This document shows positions 2,891 to 58,871 of a DNA stretch of 64,000 bases, piece after piece (the stretch's first letter is position 1; each line of letters starts with the position of its first letter). The notes under the pieces are model-generated. The model saw only the letters and a list, made by a program, of their open reading frames with translations. It ran no database searches and was not told where the DNA came from. Source of the DNA: an uncultured Gammaproteobacteria bacterium (GTDB lineage Bacteria; Patescibacteriota; Microgenomatia; UBA8517; JACQJR01); contig CAYTZB010000006.1 of NCBI GenBank assembly GCA_964442455.1, forward strand, positions 9,532 to 73,531. The letters are read 5' to 3'. Made by a program: the position numbers and the translations under genes.

Positions 2891-4291
2891 ATGAAAGAGT
2901 ATGAGTTGCTATGGAAACAGGTATTAGATGTCGTGCGAGTCTCGGTTTCGACCGCGGCATTCTCTACGTGGTTTGCACACACGTTTATCGTACACAACAA
3001 GGAAGTAACACCTGAGCGTCAATCTATTGAAATTGGTTGCCCCTCTCCCTATGTGCGCGATACCCTAGAGCGACGCTATTTTGGTATTATCCAAGACTCA
3101 CTGCAGCAAATCAGTGGAAAGATAAATGATGTTGTGTTCATAGTAAAACCCAAACCGCACACTTCCTCCTCACCACCAGATTTTTCTCCTTTATTTCATC
3201 ATAAAGAATACGACGAGAAGGAACTTGCTTCCCGTTTCACAAAAACAGGCTTACTTCCGGGATTTACCTTCTCAAACTTTGCGGTATCTCCCTCTAATCA
3301 ACTTGCCTGGGCAGCAGCTCAAGCTGTCGCGAAAAATCCCGGAAGAGCCTATAATCCTCTTTTTGTTTGGGGTGGAGTAGGGGTGGGGAAAACCCATCTT
3401 GCCTCTGCCATTGGGCATGAAATACTCAAAACCTCACCTGATATAAAAGTTCTTTATGCAACCGGCGAGGAGTTTATGGTAGGAATTATTGACGCAATTC
3501 GCACCAAAACCACAAATGAATTTAAAAAACGATACAGAAATATTGATGTTTTAGTGATAGACGATATCCAATTTATTGCCGGCAAACCAACCGTCCAGGA
3601 TGAATTTTTCCACACTTTTAATGTAATTCAACGAGCTGGCGGTCAGATTATTGTCACAAGCGACAGACCCCCCCGAGAAATCCCGAAGCTTGCCGACAGA
3701 CTCAAAAACAGATTTGAAGCAGGACTTATCGTCGATATTGCGCCCCCTGACTTTGAATTACGGTGTGCGATTTTTATTATCAAAGCAAAGGAGCAGGGAA
3801 TTGCACTCAGTATGGATACTATTCAACTCGTCGCCATGCATATTCTCTCGCCAAGAGAATTAGAGGGATTTTTAACTCGTTTACAATCACGCACCGTCCT
3901 TACAAATACGCCAATTACTGATACATTAATTAAAGAATTACTTAATATAAGAGGAAAAGCAACACAAGGGTTAACCTTTTTACTAGAAGAGGATGGGGTA
4001 GTACGGATTACTCCTCAAAATGTGGTATCTACCGTATGTACGTACTTTTCTATTCCTAAAAAAACTCTTGTTTCTCCAACACGGACAAAAACAATCGCGT
4101 TTCCTCGTCAAATTCTCATGTATTTACTTCGCACAGAACTTAAATTACCATTGGAAGAAATAGGAAAAATCTTAGGAGGAAGAGACCATACAACCATTCT
4201 TTATGGTGTTGAAAAAATAAATTCACTTTTACCAAAATCGAGTGAAGTTGAACAACATATTTTGGGGATTAAAAAACAATTGTGGGGATAA
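2891..4291 (+). CDS. dnaA: Chromosomal replication initiator protein DnaA
   Basis: Walker A GVGVGKTHL, AAA+ motifs and a C-terminal DNA-binding domain. 466 aa. Standard position. Confidence 0.95.
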   Translation: MKEYELLWKQVLDVVRVSVSTAAFSTWFAHTFIVHNKEVTPERQSIEIGCPSPYVRDTLERRYFGIIQDSLQQISGKINDVVFIVKPKPHTSSSPPDFSPLFHHKEYDEKELASRFTKTGLLPGFTFSNFAVSPSNQLAWAAAQAVAKNPGRAYNPLFVWGGVGVGKTHLASAIGHEILKTSPDIKVLYATGEEFMVGIIDAIRTKTTNEFKKRYRNIDVLVIDDIQFIAGKPTVQDEFFHTFNVIQRAGGQIIVTSDRPPREIPKLADRLKNRFEAGLIVDIAPPDFELRCAIFIIKAKEQGIALSMDTIQLVAMHILSPRELEGFLTRLQSRTVLTNTPITDTLIKELLNIRGKATQGLTFLLEEDGVVRITPQNVVSTVCTYFSIPKKTLVSPTRTKTIAFPRQILMYLLRTELKLPLEEIGKILGGRDHTTILYGVEKINSLLPKSSEVEQHILGIKKQLWG

Positions 4292-4438
4292 TATATGTTT
4301 ATTCTCCACAGTTTATTTATTAATCAACAATAATTATTAACAAATAGTTAGGCGTCCTATCCACAACTAAAAATGTGCGTAGATTGCGCTCACTTATCCA
4401 AATATCAACAATACCAACAACAATAACAATTAATATTT
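4292..4438. promoter_or_regulatory. Candidate oriC (dnaA-dnaN spacer) with DnaA-box cluster and AT-rich unwinding region
   Basis: TTCTCCACA (4302-4310), CTATCCACA (4357-4365) and TTATCCAAA (4395-4403) are each one mismatch from TTATCCACA. TGTGGGGATAA spans the dnaA stop (4281-4291). The spacer is very AT-rich. Confidence 0.55.
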
Positions 4439-5536
4439 ATGAAATTTTCAATATTACAAGAAGAATTTGAAAAGGGGATAAATACAGTATATCGTTTTAT
4501 AAACCCTCGTCCTCAACTTCCAATTCTTTCTCATATTCTTATGACATTAGAAAAAGGAAGAATGCGGTTGTGTACTACTAATCTTGAAGGGGGAATAAAT
4601 TATTGGTTAGGAGTAAAAATAGAAAAAGAAGGAAGTATTACTATACCTGCGCGAACACTTCTTGAGGTAGTAGGAAGTTTACCAACAGGAAAAATTGATA
4701 TAGAAGAAAATAATGGAGTACTTACTATTGCCTGTGCTGGTTCTTTAATTACCATTCCTACTACTCCTGCGAATGAATTTCCTAGTGTACTTTATACACT
4801 TCCAAAACAACACAGTACCTTTGAGAACGAATTATTTACTAAAATAACTCAACAGGTGGTATGGGCCGCTGGAGGAGATGAGACAAAACCAGTATTCACA
4901 GGGTTGTTATTTCTTCCGAGAGAAGAGGGAATAATGTTAGTCGCAACAGACGGGGTGCGTCTCTCTCGAAAAACAATTAAAACCTCAACTTCTCTCTCTA
5001 CTAAAATACTTATCCCCGCACGAATTATTGCTGAAATTCCAAAAATTTTTACCAACACGAAAGTTATTTCTCTTGCGCTTCAAGAAGAGGAAAATCAGGT
5101 TTTATTTGGAAGTGATGATGTAGTGGTTGCAGTAAAGTTACTCGAAGGCGAATTCCCAGACTTTGAAAAAATAATCCCTTCTTCTTGGAGTACGACTGTC
5201 CTCCTTGAGAAAGAAGAGTTACAGCGAGCACTTCGCCTTTCTTCAATTTTTGCAAAAGATTTTATTGTTAAGTTTCAATTTAATGCTCGGGAATGTACGC
5301 TTACATCCGAAGACGCTCAAACAGGTACACAAACAACCGCGTTATCAGGGAAGGTCGAAGGAGAGGAAATAAGTATTTCGTTTAATTGGAGGTTTATCCA
5401 TGAATTTCTTACGGCAGTAGAAGGAGAGGAAGTGCAGTTTCGTTTTGTCAGTCCCACCTCGCCTGGTGTGTTTGTTGACCCTAAAGACGAAAGCTTTCTT
5501 CATCTCATCATGCCCATTAGGACCAATAGCGAGTGA
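4439..5536 (+). CDS. dnaN: DNA polymerase III beta sliding clamp
   Basis: 365-aa protein with a three-domain clamp-like sequence. Immediately downstream of dnaA. Confidence 0.9.
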   Translation: MKFSILQEEFEKGINTVYRFINPRPQLPILSHILMTLEKGRMRLCTTNLEGGINYWLGVKIEKEGSITIPARTLLEVVGSLPTGKIDIEENNGVLTIACAGSLITIPTTPANEFPSVLYTLPKQHSTFENELFTKITQQVVWAAGGDETKPVFTGLLFLPREEGIMLVATDGVRLSRKTIKTSTSLSTKILIPARIIAEIPKIFTNTKVISLALQEEENQVLFGSDDVVVAVKLLEGEFPDFEKIIPSSWSTTVLLEKEELQRALRLSSIFAKDFIVKFQFNARECTLTSEDAQTGTQTTALSGKVEGEEISISFNWRFIHEFLTAVEGEEVQFRFVSPTSPGVFVDPKDESFLHLIMPIRTNSE

Positions 5537-27123: not shown

Positions 27124-27564
27124 ATGAAGATTATAAATCGTCGAGCGCCTTATGAGTATCAACTACAAGACCGTATTGAGGCGGGTATTTCGCTCTTAGG
27201 TAGCGAAGTAAAATCAATTAAAACAGGAAGAGCAGACCTTTCAGCAAGTATTGTTCGTATGAAAGATGGACAGGCATATTTGTTAAATGCAAATATTCCA
27301 CCTTATCAAGGTGGAGTGCCACAAGATTATAATCCCACCAGAACCCGCAAACTTCTCTTGAATAAAAATGAATTAATCTTTTTAGAAACCAAGGTAAAGC
27401 AGCAGAAATTGACAATTGTGCCTACAAAAGTGTATAGTAAAGGGCAACTAATTAAGGTCGAGATAGCTTTAGCAAAGCCAAAGCGTAAGTTCGAAAAACG
27501 CGAAGCAAAGAGAAGAAAAGATGTTGAAAGAGAAATAGAGCGAGAGTTAAAACCAAGGGGATGA
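27124..27564 (+). CDS. smpB: SsrA-binding protein SmpB
   Basis: Conserved SmpB core (GSEVKSI, TRTRKLLLNKNEL) and a basic C-terminal tail. Followed by tmRNA. Confidence 0.9.
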   Translation: MKIINRRAPYEYQLQDRIEAGISLLGSEVKSIKTGRADLSASIVRMKDGQAYLLNANIPPYQGGVPQDYNPTRTRKLLLNKNELIFLETKVKQQKLTIVPTKVYSKGQLIKVEIALAKPKRKFEKREAKRRKDVEREIERELKPRG

Positions 27565-27914
27565 TAGGTTTCGACGGGAAGCACCTTAACACCCAGGCAA
27601 GCTGAGTTTGGCTCACACTCACTAAACATAAGCCAAAACAAAAACGTCAACTATCCAAGTGGACGTCTAGCGTACGCAACAGCGTAAGCGCTAGCATCTG
27701 TATTGCGTTCTCCTGCGGTGCATTATGGGTGTAAAATAGCAGGATGCTCTTTAACTCTGGTTGATCAGCAGAGGTAAAGAAAAGACCTTCTGGTCTTACC
27801 CTAAAGATTAGTGTCAGCTCTCAAACTTTTGGGGGACACAAACTAACTGACTAAGCTTGTAATACTTGGGTGCTTAGGACTTTTCGGATCCGGGTTCAAC
27901 TCCCGGCATCTCCA
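27557..27914 (+). ncRNA. ssrA: tmRNA (SsrA), CCA not encoded
   Basis: 5' GGGGATGATAGGTTTCGACGGG matches the tmRNA 5' consensus. 3' GGATCCGGGTTCAACTCCCGGCATCTCCA is the T-arm plus acceptor, complementary to the 5' GGGGATG. Candidate tag ORF ...NYPSGRLAYATA ends at TAA 27685-27687. Begins 8 nt before the smpB stop. Confidence 0.8.
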
Positions 27915-27924
27915 CTTAAAATTA

Positions 27925-28672: not shown

Positions 28673-28758
28673 GGTGGGTTGGCTGAGTGGTCTAAAGCGA
28701 CGGTTTGCTAAACCGTTCTCTCGAAAGGGAGGCACAGGTTCGAATCCTGTACCCACCG
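28673..28758 (+). tRNA. tRNA-Ser(GCT)
   Basis: Cloverleaf with long variable arm. Anticodon loop TTGCTAA. T-loop GGTTCGAATCC. Acceptor GGTGGGT/ACCCACC with discriminator G. Confidence 0.8.
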
Positions 28759-28885
28759 CAGAAAACGAAGTTTTTGAGGATGGGGCAGGATGAGAATTTA
28801 TTCGACATCAAACCTTTAGGGCTTGATGATGAGCGAAGCGAATAATCCTGTACCCACCGCCTTCGGCAAGCGGAGTAGTAAACTT

Positions 28886-29516: not shown

Positions 29517-29528
29517 ATTTGCGCCCAT

Positions 29529-29625
29529 AAGAACCTGCTTCGCAGAACCTTGGCCTTTCAGGCTAAGAACCTGCTTCGCAGAACCTTGGCCTTTCAGGCT
29601 AAGAACCTGCTTCGCAGAACCTTGT
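29529..29625. repeat. 36-bp direct tandem repeat, about 2.7 copies
   Basis: aagaacctgcttcgcagaaccttggcctttcaggct repeated head-to-tail. Flanked on both sides by GCGCCCATA (29521 and the tRNA-Arg start at 29645). Confidence 0.85.
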
Positions 29626-29644
29626 GGACGCTTCGCTATCACTT

Positions 29645-29717
29645 GCGCCCATAGCTTAATTGGATAGAGTAGCGGCTTGCGGAGCCGCTGATCCCAGTTC
29701 GATTCTGGGTGGGCGCG
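29645..29717 (+). tRNA. tRNA-Arg(GCG)
   Basis: Acceptor GCGCCCA/TGGGCGC. Anticodon stem GCGGC/GCCGC with loop TTGCGGA. T-loop TTCGATT. Confidence 0.65.
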
Positions 29718-35302: not shown

Positions 35303-35412
35303 TTTATTGCATTATTGTATCAAAGTTCATGTGATTGTAGAAGATAGTCAGGAAAATAATAAGCTGGATTTCTGCGTTATTTGATGGTAGAATTGAATCT
35401 GTACGTTGATAT

Positions 35413-35449
35413 TCCCCTGTAGTCCGCCAGCTGGCGGACGGCTCGCTGT
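35413..35449 (+). other. Degenerate copy of the tRNA-Asn 5' half (acceptor strand through anticodon stem) with remodelled D-arm hairpin
   Basis: TCCCCTGTAG and GGCTCGCTGT are identical to tRNA-Asn at 35707. The intervening D-arm is replaced by the perfect hairpin GTCCGCCAGCTGGCGGAC. Confidence 0.6.
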
Positions 35450-35460
35450 AAAATGGAAAT

Positions 35461-35706
35461 ATGAGTTGGTTTGTGTACGCTCTATATAATCAAGAGAGTA
35501 AAAAGATTTATATAGGACAGACCAATAATATTGGAAGAAGATTATTGGAACATAATCAAAAGAAAGGAAATCATTTTACGGCTAAAGTCCTAGGAGAATG
35601 GAAACTAGTATATAAAGAAGAATTTGAAATTAGAGAGGAAGCAATTAGGAGAGAAAAACAATTAAAAAGTTTTAGGGGTAGGGAGTTCCTTAAAAATTTA
35701 ATATAA
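35461..35706 (+). CDS. Small stand-alone GIY-YIG nuclease-domain protein (YhbQ/UPF0213-like)
   Basis: YALYNQESKKIYIGQTNNIGRRLLEHN carries the GIY-YIG core (Y..Y...YIG.T.N..RR..EH). 81 aa. The ORF ends exactly at the tRNA-Asn start. Confidence 0.7.
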   Translation: MSWFVYALYNQESKKIYIGQTNNIGRRLLEHNQKKGNHFTAKVLGEWKLVYKEEFEIREEAIRREKQLKSFRGREFLKNLI

Positions 35707-35779
35707 TCCCCTGTAGCTCAACTGGCAGAGCGGCTCGCTGTTAACGAGAAGGTTGTAGGTTCGAGTCCTACCGGGGGAG
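35707..35779 (+). tRNA. tRNA-Asn(GTT)
   Basis: U1-A72 acceptor (TCCCCTG/CGGGGGA) as in E. coli tRNA-Asn. Anticodon loop CTGTTAA. T-loop GGTTCGAGTCC. Confidence 0.8.
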
Positions 35780-35830
35780 CTGAATTGTTCTTAATCGACC
35801 CAAATTAAACTTACCATTAGTTACGTTTTT

Positions 35831-36613
35831 ATGAAATCGAAAAATAATATGTCGCAAGACAATTTACAAAAACTAAATAACTATTTTGAAAAATACATCG
35901 ACGGGATGATTATCAAGGATATCCAGCTATTAGAAGCGAGGAATGGTGAGCTAAAATTTTCCTACCCGTATATTTTATTAGTTTGTAGCTGTATTGATCT
36001 GTTCGGCGGTATCGAAAAGGGTTTTACTAAACCTAATGGACGGAGAAATTCGGAAAAGAGATTTAAATGGTTTATTACTGAATGGATGGGTTTAGTAAAT
36101 CCTCTATATAAGGAAAGTAGTCTTGCTTATTTAATTTATGATAGTTGGAGGTGTGGCATAGTTCATCAGGCTACCCTGAAAAAAGGATTTGAAACCTCAT
36201 CTTATATGTATCCCAGAGATAAACATTTGCATTATATTGAAGATAATGAAAGAATTTTTGTACACTCCTTGCAATTTGCAGACGATTTAATTGAAGCTCA
36301 AAAGTTGTATAGAAAACATATAAATGAGAACGCAACAGATACTGTTTACATAGACTCGTTGTATAACCACCTATTGAATATGATTGGTGAAAATAATGTT
36401 AAGACAAATCGAATTTATAACCAATTTATCCAATTTCTACAAAGAAACAATTTAGTATTTAAATCATTGAGTAGCACTTCTATGAAATCTTCTACCAAAT
36501 CAACATCGTCAACATCGTCAAGTTCTTATTCTCAAGAGAATATTACGCGCTTGCCGGATGAATTATTGCCTGCTGTCCCCTCTGCTGCGCCAGAGGAAGA
36601 TGATTTAGAATAA
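35831..36613 (+). CDS. Hypothetical protein (260 aa), AT-rich, first gene of island
   Basis: Intact ORF with island-like composition and a Ser/Thr-rich C-terminal tail. No motif assignable. Confidence 0.45.
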   Translation: MKSKNNMSQDNLQKLNNYFEKYIDGMIIKDIQLLEARNGELKFSYPYILLVCSCIDLFGGIEKGFTKPNGRRNSEKRFKWFITEWMGLVNPLYKESSLAYLIYDSWRCGIVHQATLKKGFETSSYMYPRDKHLHYIEDNERIFVHSLQFADDLIEAQKLYRKHINENATDTVYIDSLYNHLLNMIGENNVKTNRIYNQFIQFLQRNNLVFKSLSSTSMKSSTKSTSSTSSSSYSQENITRLPDELLPAVPSAAPEEDDLE

Positions 36614-36773
36614 CTGAAGAATTTACCATTTTAAATAATTTTATTTGCTTCAATCTTTCTCTTGCTTGTTCAGCTCATGCAGGATTTTGAAAAGCTTTGA
36701 TAATTGTGGTTAAACAGTCCTGTTTGATTATTTTTTCTTTATATCGTAAAGTTTGGGAGTATAATTCTAGTCT

Positions 36774-36944
36774 ATGCTCTTCGGCAAAAAGAAATGTTTA
36801 AAATGTGACAGTACAAACCTAAAGACTATTAGAACAAGTCTTTTGGGTAAATTATTTTGGCCATTAGGTCATCCATTCTGGACTAGGGCACCGCGACCTC
36901 TTAATGTTTGCAGAGATTGTGGATTTAGTTGGGAAGATAGATAG
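36774..36944 (+). CDS. Small double zinc-ribbon protein (56 aa)
   Basis: Manual translation MLFGKKKCLKCDSTNL...CRDCGFSWEDR with CxxC...CxxC. TATAAT at about 36751. Below the ORF-track cutoff. Confidence 0.35.
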   Translation: MLFGKKKCLKCDSTNLKTIRTSLLGKLFWPLGHPFWTRAPRPLNVCRDCGFSWEDR

Positions 36945-36953
36945 CACTAATAA

Positions 36954-38009
36954 ATGAAAAAACCTTGGTATAAAAAATGGTGGGGAATTTTAGCAATTAT
37001 TCTTTTTCTTTGGCCATTCTTCTTAACTTATTGGATTTGGAAGAAAAAATGGGATATCAAGCTAAGAGTTGGTTTAATCGCAGTTTTCTGGTTATTTGGT
37101 TTAATTATTCTAGCTTCCTCTGGTAGTAAGAGTGGTCAACAATCTCTTCAGGAAGGATATAAGGCAGGTAAAGGTACAGTTTCAAACTCCACATCCATTC
37201 CGACTCCTACCCCAACACCAACTGGAAAAGGAGCCGCAAAGCAAATAGCAGTTTGTCCTACCAAGACAACAGCTACATATAAAGTCATTAAATGTGTTGT
37301 TTTACTTGATGATACGAATAAACAATATAATGATTTAGAAGTAGTTATTAATCCCTCACTACGATCTCAGGAAGACAAAGTACGAGCCTTAGCAAATACA
37401 GTAAGAACGAACGAATGTCCAAAAGATTGCCTTTTAAATATTTGGGATGATGTAGATAGTGCGAATTTAGCATTCACCTATGATTTATTAAGCGAAGCAG
37501 ACCAAAACAAATGGAAACAAGATCATGCTTCTTTTTTTGCACCTGGTGGAGGATTAGAGATGCATTTTATTGCTACATTTGATACTGATGGAAATAAATT
37601 TGATTATATGGTGGAACCGCCAACTCCAGCTCCTAGAAAATTTGTTTACGAGCTGGAAAAACCATATTTTGTTGATGATGAGAAATGGCAAACAATAATT
37701 GTGCCAGATGATAGCACCATTGAAGAATTAACTAATTTAGCAAAAGATATGCACAAAAATAATCCTGAAGTTTATTATAATATTTTTGACAACAAGGATG
37801 AGTTTATAGCTTATCAAAAGTGGGCCATTTCCAAAAACGATCAGAGTGTTTACTTTCCCGATAAATGGGTAAAAGAACATTCTATAGGCATGATTAACAA
37901 AATGTTAACAACTAACAGAGGAATAAATAATAGGCTATTATGGCAATTCTATCCTACTCCAAGTGATTTCTGGGGTAATTCCGTGCCTGAAGCAGTGGAT
38001 TTGGAGTAA
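36954..38009 (+). CDS. Membrane-anchored extracytoplasmic protein (351 aa)
   Basis: Two N-terminal TM helices (WWGILAIILFLWPFFLTYWIW, VGLIAVFWLFGLIILA), then a Thr/Pro linker and a globular domain. Confidence 0.45.
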   Translation: MKKPWYKKWWGILAIILFLWPFFLTYWIWKKKWDIKLRVGLIAVFWLFGLIILASSGSKSGQQSLQEGYKAGKGTVSNSTSIPTPTPTPTGKGAAKQIAVCPTKTTATYKVIKCVVLLDDTNKQYNDLEVVINPSLRSQEDKVRALANTVRTNECPKDCLLNIWDDVDSANLAFTYDLLSEADQNKWKQDHASFFAPGGGLEMHFIATFDTDGNKFDYMVEPPTPAPRKFVYELEKPYFVDDEKWQTIIVPDDSTIEELTNLAKDMHKNNPEVYYNIFDNKDEFIAYQKWAISKNDQSVYFPDKWVKEHSIGMINKMLTTNRGINNRLLWQFYPTPSDFWGNSVPEAVDLE

Positions 38010-57844: not shown

Positions 57845-58871
57845 CATCGAGCAAACTGCCAAAATGCTTGTCTCCCTTGGTAAAGGGTTACTCGCCGCTG
57901 ATGAAAGTTTTCCGACAATTGAGAAGCGATTCGATGCAGTAGGAGTTGAATCGACGCCGCAGACAAGAGTGGCTTATCGCGAACTGTTGTTTACTACAGA
58001 GGGAGTGGAGAAATTCTTAAGCGGCGTAATTTTGTTTGATGAAACCCTTCGCCAAAAAACAACTCAGGGCAAGCTATTCGTGGAGGTTTTAAAGGAGCGG
58101 GGAATTTTTCCTGGAATAAAAGTTGATGAAGGCTTAGAAGATTTACCTGGCTCACCAAATGAAAAGATAACAAAGGGACTTAGCGGACTTGAAGCGCGTT
58201 TAAAAGAGTATAAGAATTTAGGTGCTCGTTTTACAAAATTGAGATGTGTATTTGTAATTGGGGATGGTTTGCCGACTCAAAACGCAATTAATAAAAATGC
58301 TGAAGTTCTAACCAATTATTGTCTTCTTTCTCAGAGGGTAGGATTAACACCAATTCCTGAACCAGAAGTTTTAATGGATGGAGACCATTCAATTGAAAAA
58401 TGTAAGGATGTTTCAACTTTGGTTCTTAAAACCGTTTTTTTATCTTTTAAAAAAGAAAATGTGAGTTTAGAAGGTATGCTTTTAAAAACAAATATGGTCT
58501 TGCCAGGGAGAGATAATCCAAAGAGAGCAACACCCAATGAGATTGCGGCAGCAACAATTGAAACGCTCAAAAATTGCGTCCCACCTCAAGTAACTGGTAT
58601 TGTTTTCCTATCAGGAGGGCAAGCGCCCGAAGAAGCAACTGCAAACTTAAATGCTATAAATGTACAAAAAGGATCCCTGCCTGCCGGCAGGCAGGCCTGG
58701 GAACTTAGTTTTTCTTTTTCAAGAGCACTCCAAGAACCAGTCCTTGAAGCGTGGCAAGGGAAAGAGGAAAATATAGCAAAGGCACAGAGTATTTTTTACA
58801 AAAGAGCACGACTTAATAGCCTGGCAAGAGACGGACACTATACACCGGAGATGGAAAATGAAAACTATTGA
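57837..58871 (+). CDS. fbaB: Fructose-bisphosphate aldolase class I
   Basis: LLAADES and IVFLSGGQ motifs. Start moved to MSDIEQ (57837) to avoid a long overlap with tkt. Confidence 0.75.
   Translation: MSDIEQTAKMLVSLGKGLLAADESFPTIEKRFDAVGVESTPQTRVAYRELLFTTEGVEKFLSGVILFDETLRQKTTQGKLFVEVLKERGIFPGIKVDEGLEDLPGSPNEKITKGLSGLEARLKEYKNLGARFTKLRCVFVIGDGLPTQNAINKNAEVLTNYCLLSQRVGLTPIPEPEVLMDGDHSIEKCKDVSTLVLKTVFLSFKKENVSLEGMLLKTNMVLPGRDNPKRATPNEIAAATIETLKNCVPPQVTGIVFLSGGQAPEEATANLNAINVQKGSLPAGRQAWELSFSFSRALQEPVLEAWQGKEENIAKAQSIFYKRARLNSLARDGHYTPEMENENY

Follow-up and report, generated by a model that had tools for sequence, protein, structure and literature searches.

A GIY-YIG nuclease gene and a conserved hairpin form a recurrent cassette at tRNA genes of Patescibacteria

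Within contig CAYTZB010000006.1, of which a stretch of 64 kilobases (kb), hereafter the window, was analyzed, a small GIY-YIG nuclease gene is lodged inside a tRNA-Asn transcription unit. The region from 35365 to 35780 represents a cassette that recurs in each of the 80 related Patescibacteria loci examined: a tRNA promoter and leader are followed by a displaced 5' part of the tRNA in which a hairpin stands in for the D arm, by about 22 nucleotides (nt) with a -10-like box, by the nuclease open reading frame (ORF), and by a regenerated, full-length tRNA. The cassette is conserved, its hairpin is under selection as a structure, the distance from the hairpin to the start codon is constrained, the ORF is coinherited with the architecture of the fragment, and the locus turns over locally. 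The most economical reading of this pattern, to which we would give a probability of roughly 0.55, is a homing-endonuclease-like selfish cassette that splits a tRNA gene and regenerates it.

The fragment upstream of the ORF is a real partial duplication of the adjoining tRNA-Asn (Table 1). A 10-mer and an 11-mer that lie in register and less than 300 nt from the gene they copy are far beyond chance, and the homology may reach nt 38 of the tRNA if one mismatch is allowed. ATA(T/A) leader bases precede the first part of the fragment, as they do the intact tRNA, and the second part ends where group I introns interrupt related tRNA-Asn genes (nt 35/36). An original prediction made for this locus had described the fragment as tRNA nt 1-10 and the anticodon stem with a perfectly paired hairpin, which is correct to the base, and had placed the end of an ORF of 81 amino acids (aa) directly before the intact tRNA-Asn, as is indeed the case (35706/35707): the base right after the TAA stop is nt 1 of the tRNA. 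The promoter-like element at the head of the cassette is presumably the original promoter of tRNA-Asn; a gcTGGATTT...TA(A/G)AAT motif also lies 5' of the fragment in L007, L009, L014, L016, L028, L037, and L157 (L numbers are our labels for individual loci and contigs), and a generic sigma-70 scan did not call the element in the window. The spacer before the start codon holds no clear Shine-Dalgarno sequence, and the ORF mRNA could therefore be leaderless. There is one copy of the nuclease ORF in the window. It lies outside any group I intron, as it does in intron-bearing relatives, where it is found 5' of exon 1; the tRNA-Asn of the window is intronless, with no match to the group I intron family (RF00028) between 26 and 38 kb.

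Table 1. The nuclease cassette and the DNA adjoining it in the window
Feature	Position	Strand	Remarks
Promoter-like TGGATT-N17-TAGAAT	35365..35393	+	Only match to the pattern in the window; ~20 nt 5' of the tRNA fragment
Pseudo-tRNA part 1, TCCCCTGTAG	35413..35422	+	Equals tRNA-Asn nt 1-10
Hairpin TCCGCC-AGCT-GGCGGA (TCCGCCAGCTGGCGGA)	35423..35438	+	Perfect palindrome in place of D-arm nt 11-24
Pseudo-tRNA part 2, CGGCTCGCTGT	35439..35449	+	Equals tRNA-Asn nt 25-35; ends in the anticodon
Spacer with -10-like TAAAAT (35449-35454)	35449..35460	+	Box 6 nt 5' of the ATG
GIY-YIG nuclease gene, 81 aa, UPF0213/Slx1-like branch	35461..35706	+	TAA stop ends at 35706
Intact tRNA-Asn(GTT), no encoded CCA	35707..35780	+	ARAGORN; Rfam tRNA 64.2 bits at 35707-35779
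Strain-variable AT-rich DNA, two ORFs without Pfam match, GC 0.33-0.36	35781..38009	+	Context, outside the cassette

A scan of one genome per species yielded at least 548 loci that encode relatives of the nuclease, and the best 80 were analyzed. All are from metagenome-assembled genomes of the candidate phyla radiation (CPR; Patescibacteria), some of which carry wrong taxon labels. A tRNA gene on the same strand starts no more than 81 nt from the end of the ORF in 80/80 loci; it is tRNA-Asn(GTT) in 71 of them and tRNA-Lys in the other 9. The two genes commonly overlap: in 52 of 78 loci the ORF stops at a TAG within the tRNA (U8-A9-G10 in 39, nt 20-22 in 11). A pseudo-copy of the 5' end of the local tRNA, with a hairpin, precedes the start codon in 81/82. 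Because the fragment-ORF-tRNA layout is present in all 80 loci, the arrangement must be old and maintained. It comes in several architectures that differ in where the tRNA sequence is interrupted: the hairpin follows nt 10 and replaces the D arm in type A, which includes the window, follows nt 8 in type A', lies inside the D loop (after nt 13/14) in type B, and follows nt 22/23 in type C, the architecture of the tRNA-Lys loci. The first 10 nt of the fragment are identical to those of the local tRNA in 61 of 80 loci, which span 30 different acceptor sequences; nonlocal control comparisons reach 10/10 in 0.6% of cases. Past the hairpin the fragment is usually colinear with the local tRNA too. 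The fragment of L009 is a chimera, local before the hairpin and followed by a clade-typical CAGGAAGCTGT that is not local tRNA sequence; a similar nonlocal sequence of protein-clade type follows the hairpin in L011 and L054, and possibly in L028 and L037, where the architecture leaves the end of the fragment ambiguous. Assemblies break inside or just after the tRNA 3' of the ORF in L005, L010, L017, L027, L041, L052, L056, L068, and L002-L004, which hints at repeats or strain heterogeneity at this tRNA.

These comparisons bear directly on the idea, put forward in the original prediction, that a nuclease-mediated insertion or partial duplication at the tRNA gene had left the layout behind. The duplication and the hallmarks of endonuclease-gene turnover (see below) hold up; a local insertion scar does not. 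A recent, one-off event at this tRNA with a decaying 5' half would be compatible with the layout of the window taken alone and has become barely credible, inasmuch as layout and hairpin occur in all 80 loci, in different classes and in distant relatives. Recurrence in distant relatives is also the outcome that the prediction itself had named as speaking against it. Nor is the 5' half degenerate, as it had been called: in the closest relative, L157, 49/49 nt are identical from the start of the fragment through hairpin and spacer to the ATG, although identity falls to 90% in the ORF. For the promoter region it is 81%, and fragment, hairpin, and spacer are more conserved than the third codon positions of the ORF. 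In L157 an insertion of ~104 nt with two hairpins (cctcgcagcttgctgcgggg, ctccgcagtttactgcggag) lies in the spacer 5' of the cassette (3750-3850).

The hairpin had been described as a rebuilt D arm; it is no incidental product of repair but a conserved element, with compensatory changes in its stem. It precedes the ORF in 81 of 82 loci (Ns mask the remaining one), and its consensus pairs TCCGCC with GGCGGA over 6 bp around a variable loop of 4 nt. In the window, G35422 and C35439 extend the stem to 7 bp (centroid -14.3 kcal/mol); taken as a whole, the leader has an ordinary fold (z -0.29), and stability is confined to the hairpin. The sequence TCCGCCAGCTGGCGGA is unique in the window even when 3 mismatches are allowed (0.1 matches expected by chance). 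Among 23 distinct hairpin variants the stem is paired in 98.6% of cells, 4/6 stem pairs have compensatory changes, and 0/500 shuffles reach the observed covariation score; such covariation argues that the folded structure, and not sequence alone, is selected. Three U.G pairs versus two mismatches among the stem variants are too few to tell selection at the RNA level from selection at the DNA level. The 3' end of the hairpin lies a median of 23 nt, and in 96% of loci 10-35 nt, from the start codon, a spacing that is held whichever tRNA position is interrupted. A TAnnnT hexamer is present 10-12 nt 3' of the hairpin in 32 of 81 loci, mostly exactly 6 nt before the ATG, and only 8/81 have a Shine-Dalgarno-like motif. 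From this arrangement we infer an ORF-proximal promoter that would produce a nearly leaderless mRNA and have the hairpin at its -35 position. Two other roles were considered for the hairpin and rejected: for an intrinsic terminator there is no T-run 3' of the hairpin and the terminator scan was empty, and for a -35 box there is nothing like TTGACA at any spacing.

The hairpin is also a building block of more elaborate structures. Full-length pseudo-tRNAs with arms replaced by hairpins lie beside the intact tRNA in L015 (2849-2965), L036, L051 (2840-2945), L069 (2870-2975), L084 (2820-3005), and L243; in L015, L051, L069, L084, and L243 the D, anticodon, or T arms are each swapped for a hairpin of the TCCGCC-N3-4-GGCGGA type, several per copy. 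Hairpins are nested inside hairpins in L028, L048, L051, and L073. An exact-hairpin scan of metagenome contigs returned mostly sites without a GIY-YIG gene; since part of these matches must be chance or coding, we used their contexts and not their counts. The low-GC contigs L171, L180, L193, L198, L229, L266, L274, and L276 have longer, unrelated inverted repeats whose apex is formed by an exact copy of the 16-nt hairpin, and no GIY-YIG gene lies near. A hairpin flanked by an 11-nt direct repeat (tagtgtttagt) was seen in L273, and in L237 the hairpin is translated in frame as NPPAGGE within a repeat protein.

One could therefore turn the argument around and place the hairpin at its center: the palindrome TCCGCC-N4-GGCGGA would itself be mobile, a minute element that inserts into hairpin tips in DNA (tRNA arms, terminators, and its own copies) and is moved by an Slx1-like, structure-specific GIY-YIG enzyme, by analogy with REP sequences and their RAYT transposases; tRNA-Asn would serve as the residence of the nuclease gene. 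The replaced arms, the nested insertions, and the inverted-repeat apices would all follow, the hairpin adjoins every GIY-YIG gene of the family, and Slx1, whose fold ranks second in closeness, cleaves branched DNA and stem-loops. We nevertheless find this reading rather improbable. Hairpin copies are nearly confined to the cassette, with 90 of 91 no more than 500 nt from a GIY-YIG ORF in 372 kb of related loci and one in the whole window; by our estimate hundreds of chance matches to a 16-mer are expected in a collection as large as the metagenome contigs scanned, and those in high-GC contigs are plainly coding; no target-site signature has been established; and we know of no GIY-YIG transposase. 

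Asn and Lys tRNAs are classical targets of anticodon nucleases, and a structured RNA-like element stands directly 5' of a nuclease gene, forming in L084 a tandem array of hairpin pseudo-tRNAs. The nuclease might thus be a toxin, with the hairpin-bearing tRNA-like RNA as its decoy or antitoxin as in type III systems, possibly in connection with an attack on the anticodons of tRNA-Asn and tRNA-Lys. Such a defense role is quite unlikely: GIY-YIG enzymes are deoxyribonucleases, nothing points to RNA cleavage, and most loci have a single fragment rather than a repeat array.

The protein matches PF01541 as one domain (residues 3-70; E 1.3e-17, 64.3 bits, cutoff 22.6 bits), which bears out the GIY-YIG assignment, and the catalytic residues Y6, Y17, R27, H31, and E65 are invariant across 21 diverse homologs. 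The AlphaFold model (mean confidence, pLDDT, 88.9) has the secondary-structure order E-E-H-E-H-H, a three-stranded sheet with flanking helices. Its top fold matches in the PDB are all GIY-YIG domains; Foldseek ranks 1ZG2 and 1YWL first and second, followed by Slx1, and a profile search against the PDB likewise finds 1ZG2 (BH0048; E 5.8e-7) and 1YWL (EF2693; E 7.9e-5). In sequence and model, the closer kin of the 81-aa protein are UPF0213/YhbQ-like and Slx1 nucleases, intron homing endonucleases being more remote. It shares with the UPF0213 proteins 1ZG2 and 1YWL a single-domain build of ~80-107 aa and has in them its best matches of sequence and fold, but identity is only ~35%, and these proteins have no assigned function; to our knowledge, they have no reported link to tRNA genes or hairpins. 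With Slx1 (6SEH, 4XLG) it shares a similar GIY-YIG core (TM score of 0.64-0.67 over the query). Slx1, however, has a C-terminal zinc finger (RING/PHD) and needs its partner Slx4, whereas the window protein ends after the GIY-YIG core. An Slx1-like mode would suit the window protein, because Slx1 recognizes DNA structure (branches, stem-loops) and the window protein, which has no DNA-binding domain, is always found beside a hairpin. An identical protein is present in a Candidatus Microgenomates (Patescibacteria/CPR) assembly. Among representatives clustered at 50% identity, 831 clusters match the profile at E<=1e-10, nearly all of them 80-120 aa long; P0165 (4564 aa, 31 stretches) was set aside from that search as a false positive, an unrelated repeat protein.

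Protein clades coincide with the architecture types of the cassette. The type A clade mixes Saccharibacteria, Levybacteria, and the Microgenomates genome of the window, with other Microgenomatia falling in type B, and the use of tRNA-Lys as a target is a switch within one clade. Between the window and L157, synonymous divergence (dS) is 0.057 in the flanking gene and 0.28, five times as much, in the ORF. In five other pairs the GIY-YIG protein is two to four times more diverged than the flanking gene; the synonymous comparison is unusable in these pairs because the flanks are saturated. At the window's syntenic site (dnaG, rpoD, acyltransferase-like gene) in L159 (1-480, minus strand), the neighboring gene is 70% identical and a different GIY-YIG protein, of 84 aa, only 39%; in the fragment of L159 (TCCGGGGTAGCTCAGTGG ... 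TAGAGCGGC), ~70 nt that include other hairpins and a TATAAT box interrupt the D loop. Tandem ORFs are found in L026 and L030, ORF-fragment-hairpin-tRNA remnants in L014, L016, L018, L021, L029, L059, and L061, and an ORF-less fragment with hairpin before tRNA-Asn in L216 and L243.

How might such a cassette work? In the scheme we favor, the nuclease would promote breaks at or near tRNA-Asn and sometimes tRNA-Lys genes, and repair would copy the ORF in, with the tRNA sequence on both sides acting as portable homology. The whole tRNA would be rebuilt downstream and cotranscribed, so that the essential tRNA would never be lost. The hairpin could (i) break the direct repeat and thereby hinder deletion of the ORF, (ii) disrupt any target site in the displaced copy, or (iii) keep expression of the nuclease low, given its place at the -35 position of the ORF-proximal promoter. 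Because the ORF reads into the tRNA in most relatives, RNase P processing would remove the stop codon, and loss of the stop codon would also limit nuclease production.

Several observations weigh against a selfish homing cassette. The likeness to homing endonucleases is distant: the I-TevI catalytic domain is matched only at E 0.4 by fold, TIGR01453 (group I intron endonuclease) scores 27 bits, under its cutoff of 56 bits, and the 81-aa protein, whose closest kin are UPF0213 and Slx1 nucleases, has no DNA-binding domain (no NUMOD, helix-turn-helix, or zinc finger as in I-TevI/Seg). Viral contigs gave no close relative, only N-terminal motif matches to ordinary phage endonucleases. The flanking repeats, at 10-13 nt, are short for RecA-dependent repair, and an intact downstream tRNA would keep any target that is wholly inside the tRNA. 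The hairpin also occurs away from GIY-YIG genes in metagenome contigs. A comparison with relatives lacking the ORF, the check that had been suggested, turned up no ORF-free allele among relatives found via the neighboring acyltransferase-like protein: syntenic L157 and L159 both carry a GIY-YIG ORF, and in more distant relatives synteny is lost. Mobility is for this reason deduced and not seen. Finally, the protein is 55-70% identical among loci, many protein subclades track taxonomy, and the ORF is under purifying selection (nonsynonymous-to-synonymous ratio, dN/dS, 0.25 versus L157); these traits accord no less well with long vertical descent, or with a role in the host, than with a selfish gene.

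The last points lead to the opposite view, namely a domesticated UPF0213/YhbQ-like nuclease that serves its host, has descended vertically with tRNA-Asn since early Patescibacteria, and is cotranscribed with it. The tRNA-like leader and hairpin would then act in cis, as a regulatory RNA or an operator, and selection or gene conversion would maintain their match to the tRNA. Besides purifying selection, subclades that follow taxonomy, and the want of an empty site, this view draws on the presence of the arrangement in every related locus examined, on a conserved protein with intact catalytic residues, on a fragment, hairpin, and spacer that outlast third codon positions, and on best structural relatives that are UPF0213 proteins, not homing endonucleases. 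It is harder to square with the different GIY-YIG protein at the syntenic site in L159, with an ORF whose dS is five times that of its flank in the closest pair, with tandem copies, ORF-less remnants, and hairpin-riddled pseudo-tRNAs, with the target switch to tRNA-Lys, with mosaic or foreign fragments, and with a family of only 831 clusters at E<=1e-10 whose genome matches bear no sign of universality. We consider host service unlikely.

Parallels to the cassette exist, each of them partial. Among mobile endonuclease genes, some bring along a substitute for part of their target, as in the Allomyces mitochondrial atp6 element and in 3'-end duplications of fungal mitochondrial genes; there, as here, the target is split by the insertion, with the gene made whole again on one flank and a displaced, incomplete copy remaining on the other. 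Those cases, however, involve protein genes and their 3' ends, whereas the present one involves the 5' end of a bacterial tRNA gene and a conserved hairpin in the displaced copy. Short GC-rich palindromes near nuclease or tRNA genes of AT-rich genomes, which can be nested, are familiar as REP/RAYT systems, as the tRNA-flanking palindromes of Neurospora mitochondria, and as the GC clusters of yeast mitochondria; RAYTs belong to the HUH enzymes, and REPs occur as hundreds of scattered copies, in contrast to a hairpin nearly confined to its cassette. In collaborative homing, the free-standing F-CphI acts with an ORF-less group I intron in cyanophage psbA. An endonuclease gene beside a conserved gene with a nearby intron site recalls F-CphI and I-TevI: Rfam-confirmed group I introns lie between tRNA-Asn nt 35 and 36 in 7 of 80 loci, with all cassette types, and L005 diverges at the same point. 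The tRNA of the window is intronless, however, and the introns of two relatives carry HNH genes of their own, recognized by HNH-type Cys/His motifs in ORFs of 101-110 aa (L043:2791-3096, L077:2801-3133). 

SegB of T4 belongs to the multidomain Seg endonuclease family of phages, unlike the window protein, which is a catalytic domain of 81 aa only. SegB acts as a homing endonuclease of the GIY-YIG type, is encoded in a cluster of tRNA genes, and recognizes a T-psi-C motif of tRNA (PMC2330249). It is a direct precedent for the selfish reading; its gene lies among or next to tRNA genes and is inherited together with the neighboring tRNA DNA (PMC2330249); it differs in that it acts in phage crosses and has neither a duplicated tRNA fragment nor a conserved hairpin. 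Earlier work has noted group I introns in tRNAs of CPR bacteria as well as GIY-YIG genes in nonintron insertions of their rRNA genes (PMC8172020; PMC11270868). In the searchable literature on the hairpin, on UPF0213/YhbQ GIY-YIG proteins, and on GIY-YIG genes at CPR tRNAs, we found no description of the cassette, and the family looks like an undescribed group of tRNA-associated selfish genes. What sets this instance of a GIY-YIG gene at a tRNA apart is the minimal UPF0213/Slx1-like enzyme, the rebuilding of the tRNA beside a displaced copy of its 5' part, and the hairpin in all related loci examined.

Small stand-alone GIY-YIG proteins of the UPF0213/YhbQ-like kind are common in bacteria and have so far had no role assigned to them; one branch is now tied to tRNA-Asn/tRNA-Lys and to a hairpin, which makes function testable, both as to the target of the nuclease and as to the hairpin as substrate, operator, or immunity site. 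If the cassette is selfish, the gene would persist inside an essential single-copy tRNA gene by duplicating the part that it displaces and by using conserved tRNA sequence as homology arms. If the hairpin is the mobile unit instead, the result would be a new nuclease-plus-palindrome mobile system and a first function for the widespread UPF0213 family. For the annotation of CPR genomes, the cassette accounts for pseudo-tRNA fragments that keep recurring, for ORFs that extend into tRNA genes, and probably for the frequent contig breaks at tRNA-Asn. With cassettes, group I introns, HNH genes, and recombinases, tRNA-Asn emerges as a hub of mobile DNA in these reduced genomes.

GC content falls from ~0.47 to 0.33-0.38 between 35 and 40 kb of the window, and homology to L157 stops at 35781, exactly at the 3' end of the tRNA, in keeping with the original prediction of an AT-rich island that begins after this tRNA. 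In place of the AT-rich DNA, L157 has a second, unrelated GIY-YIG ORF (4374-4589; PF01541, E 1.6e-13) directly after tRNA-Asn, and in L077 a serine-recombinase-like ORF of 523 aa abuts the tRNA (3372-4943). Strain-variable, AT-rich DNA that starts at a tRNA 3' end, together with the large recombinase of L077, might suggest the remnant of an integrase-type genomic island at tRNA-Asn. For the fragment-ORF part such an origin is largely excluded and, overall, extremely unlikely: the nine ORFs downstream of the tRNA in the window include no integrase, no second copy of the tRNA-Asn 3' end is found with up to 3 mismatches, and what has been duplicated is the opposite (5') end of the tRNA.

Other tRNA genes of the window have fragments of their own. 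At 29519-29529, a second tRNA has been duplicated in part, with no ORF involved: TTGCGCCCATA equals 2 leader nt and nt 1-9 of tRNA-Arg(GCG). Next come a 36-nt tandem repeat in 2.7 perfect copies (29528-29624) and the intact tRNA-Arg, which starts at 29645 (region 29519-29653). The 17-nt 3' end of tRNA-Ser(GCT), AATCCTGTACCCACCGC, is repeated at 28844-28860, 84 nt 3' of the tRNA (28743-28860), and a subthreshold RtT-like Rfam match spans 28769-28862. A transfer-messenger RNA (27557-27915; Rfam 133.9 bits) has an ARAGORN tag, ASICIAFSCGALWV, that does not end in the customary ...ALAA, perhaps owing to a wrongly called resume codon. At 58676-58696 lies a GC-rich palindrome of another sequence, CCTGCCTGCCGGCAGGCAGG, and the near-identical cctgcctgccggtaggcagg adjoins a hairpin copy in metagenome contig L170. 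Outside the window, a small GIY-YIG gene (81 aa) lies ~140 nt 3' of tRNA-Met(CAT) in L285 (1450-2680), whose opposite strand has pseudo-tRNA pieces with other hairpin inserts (gggagtccactggactccc; atccgccaaaggcgta), and in L174 a GIY-YIG ORF is found just 3' of tRNA-Trp; small GIY-YIG genes of several subfamilies thus cluster at tRNA genes in these genomes.

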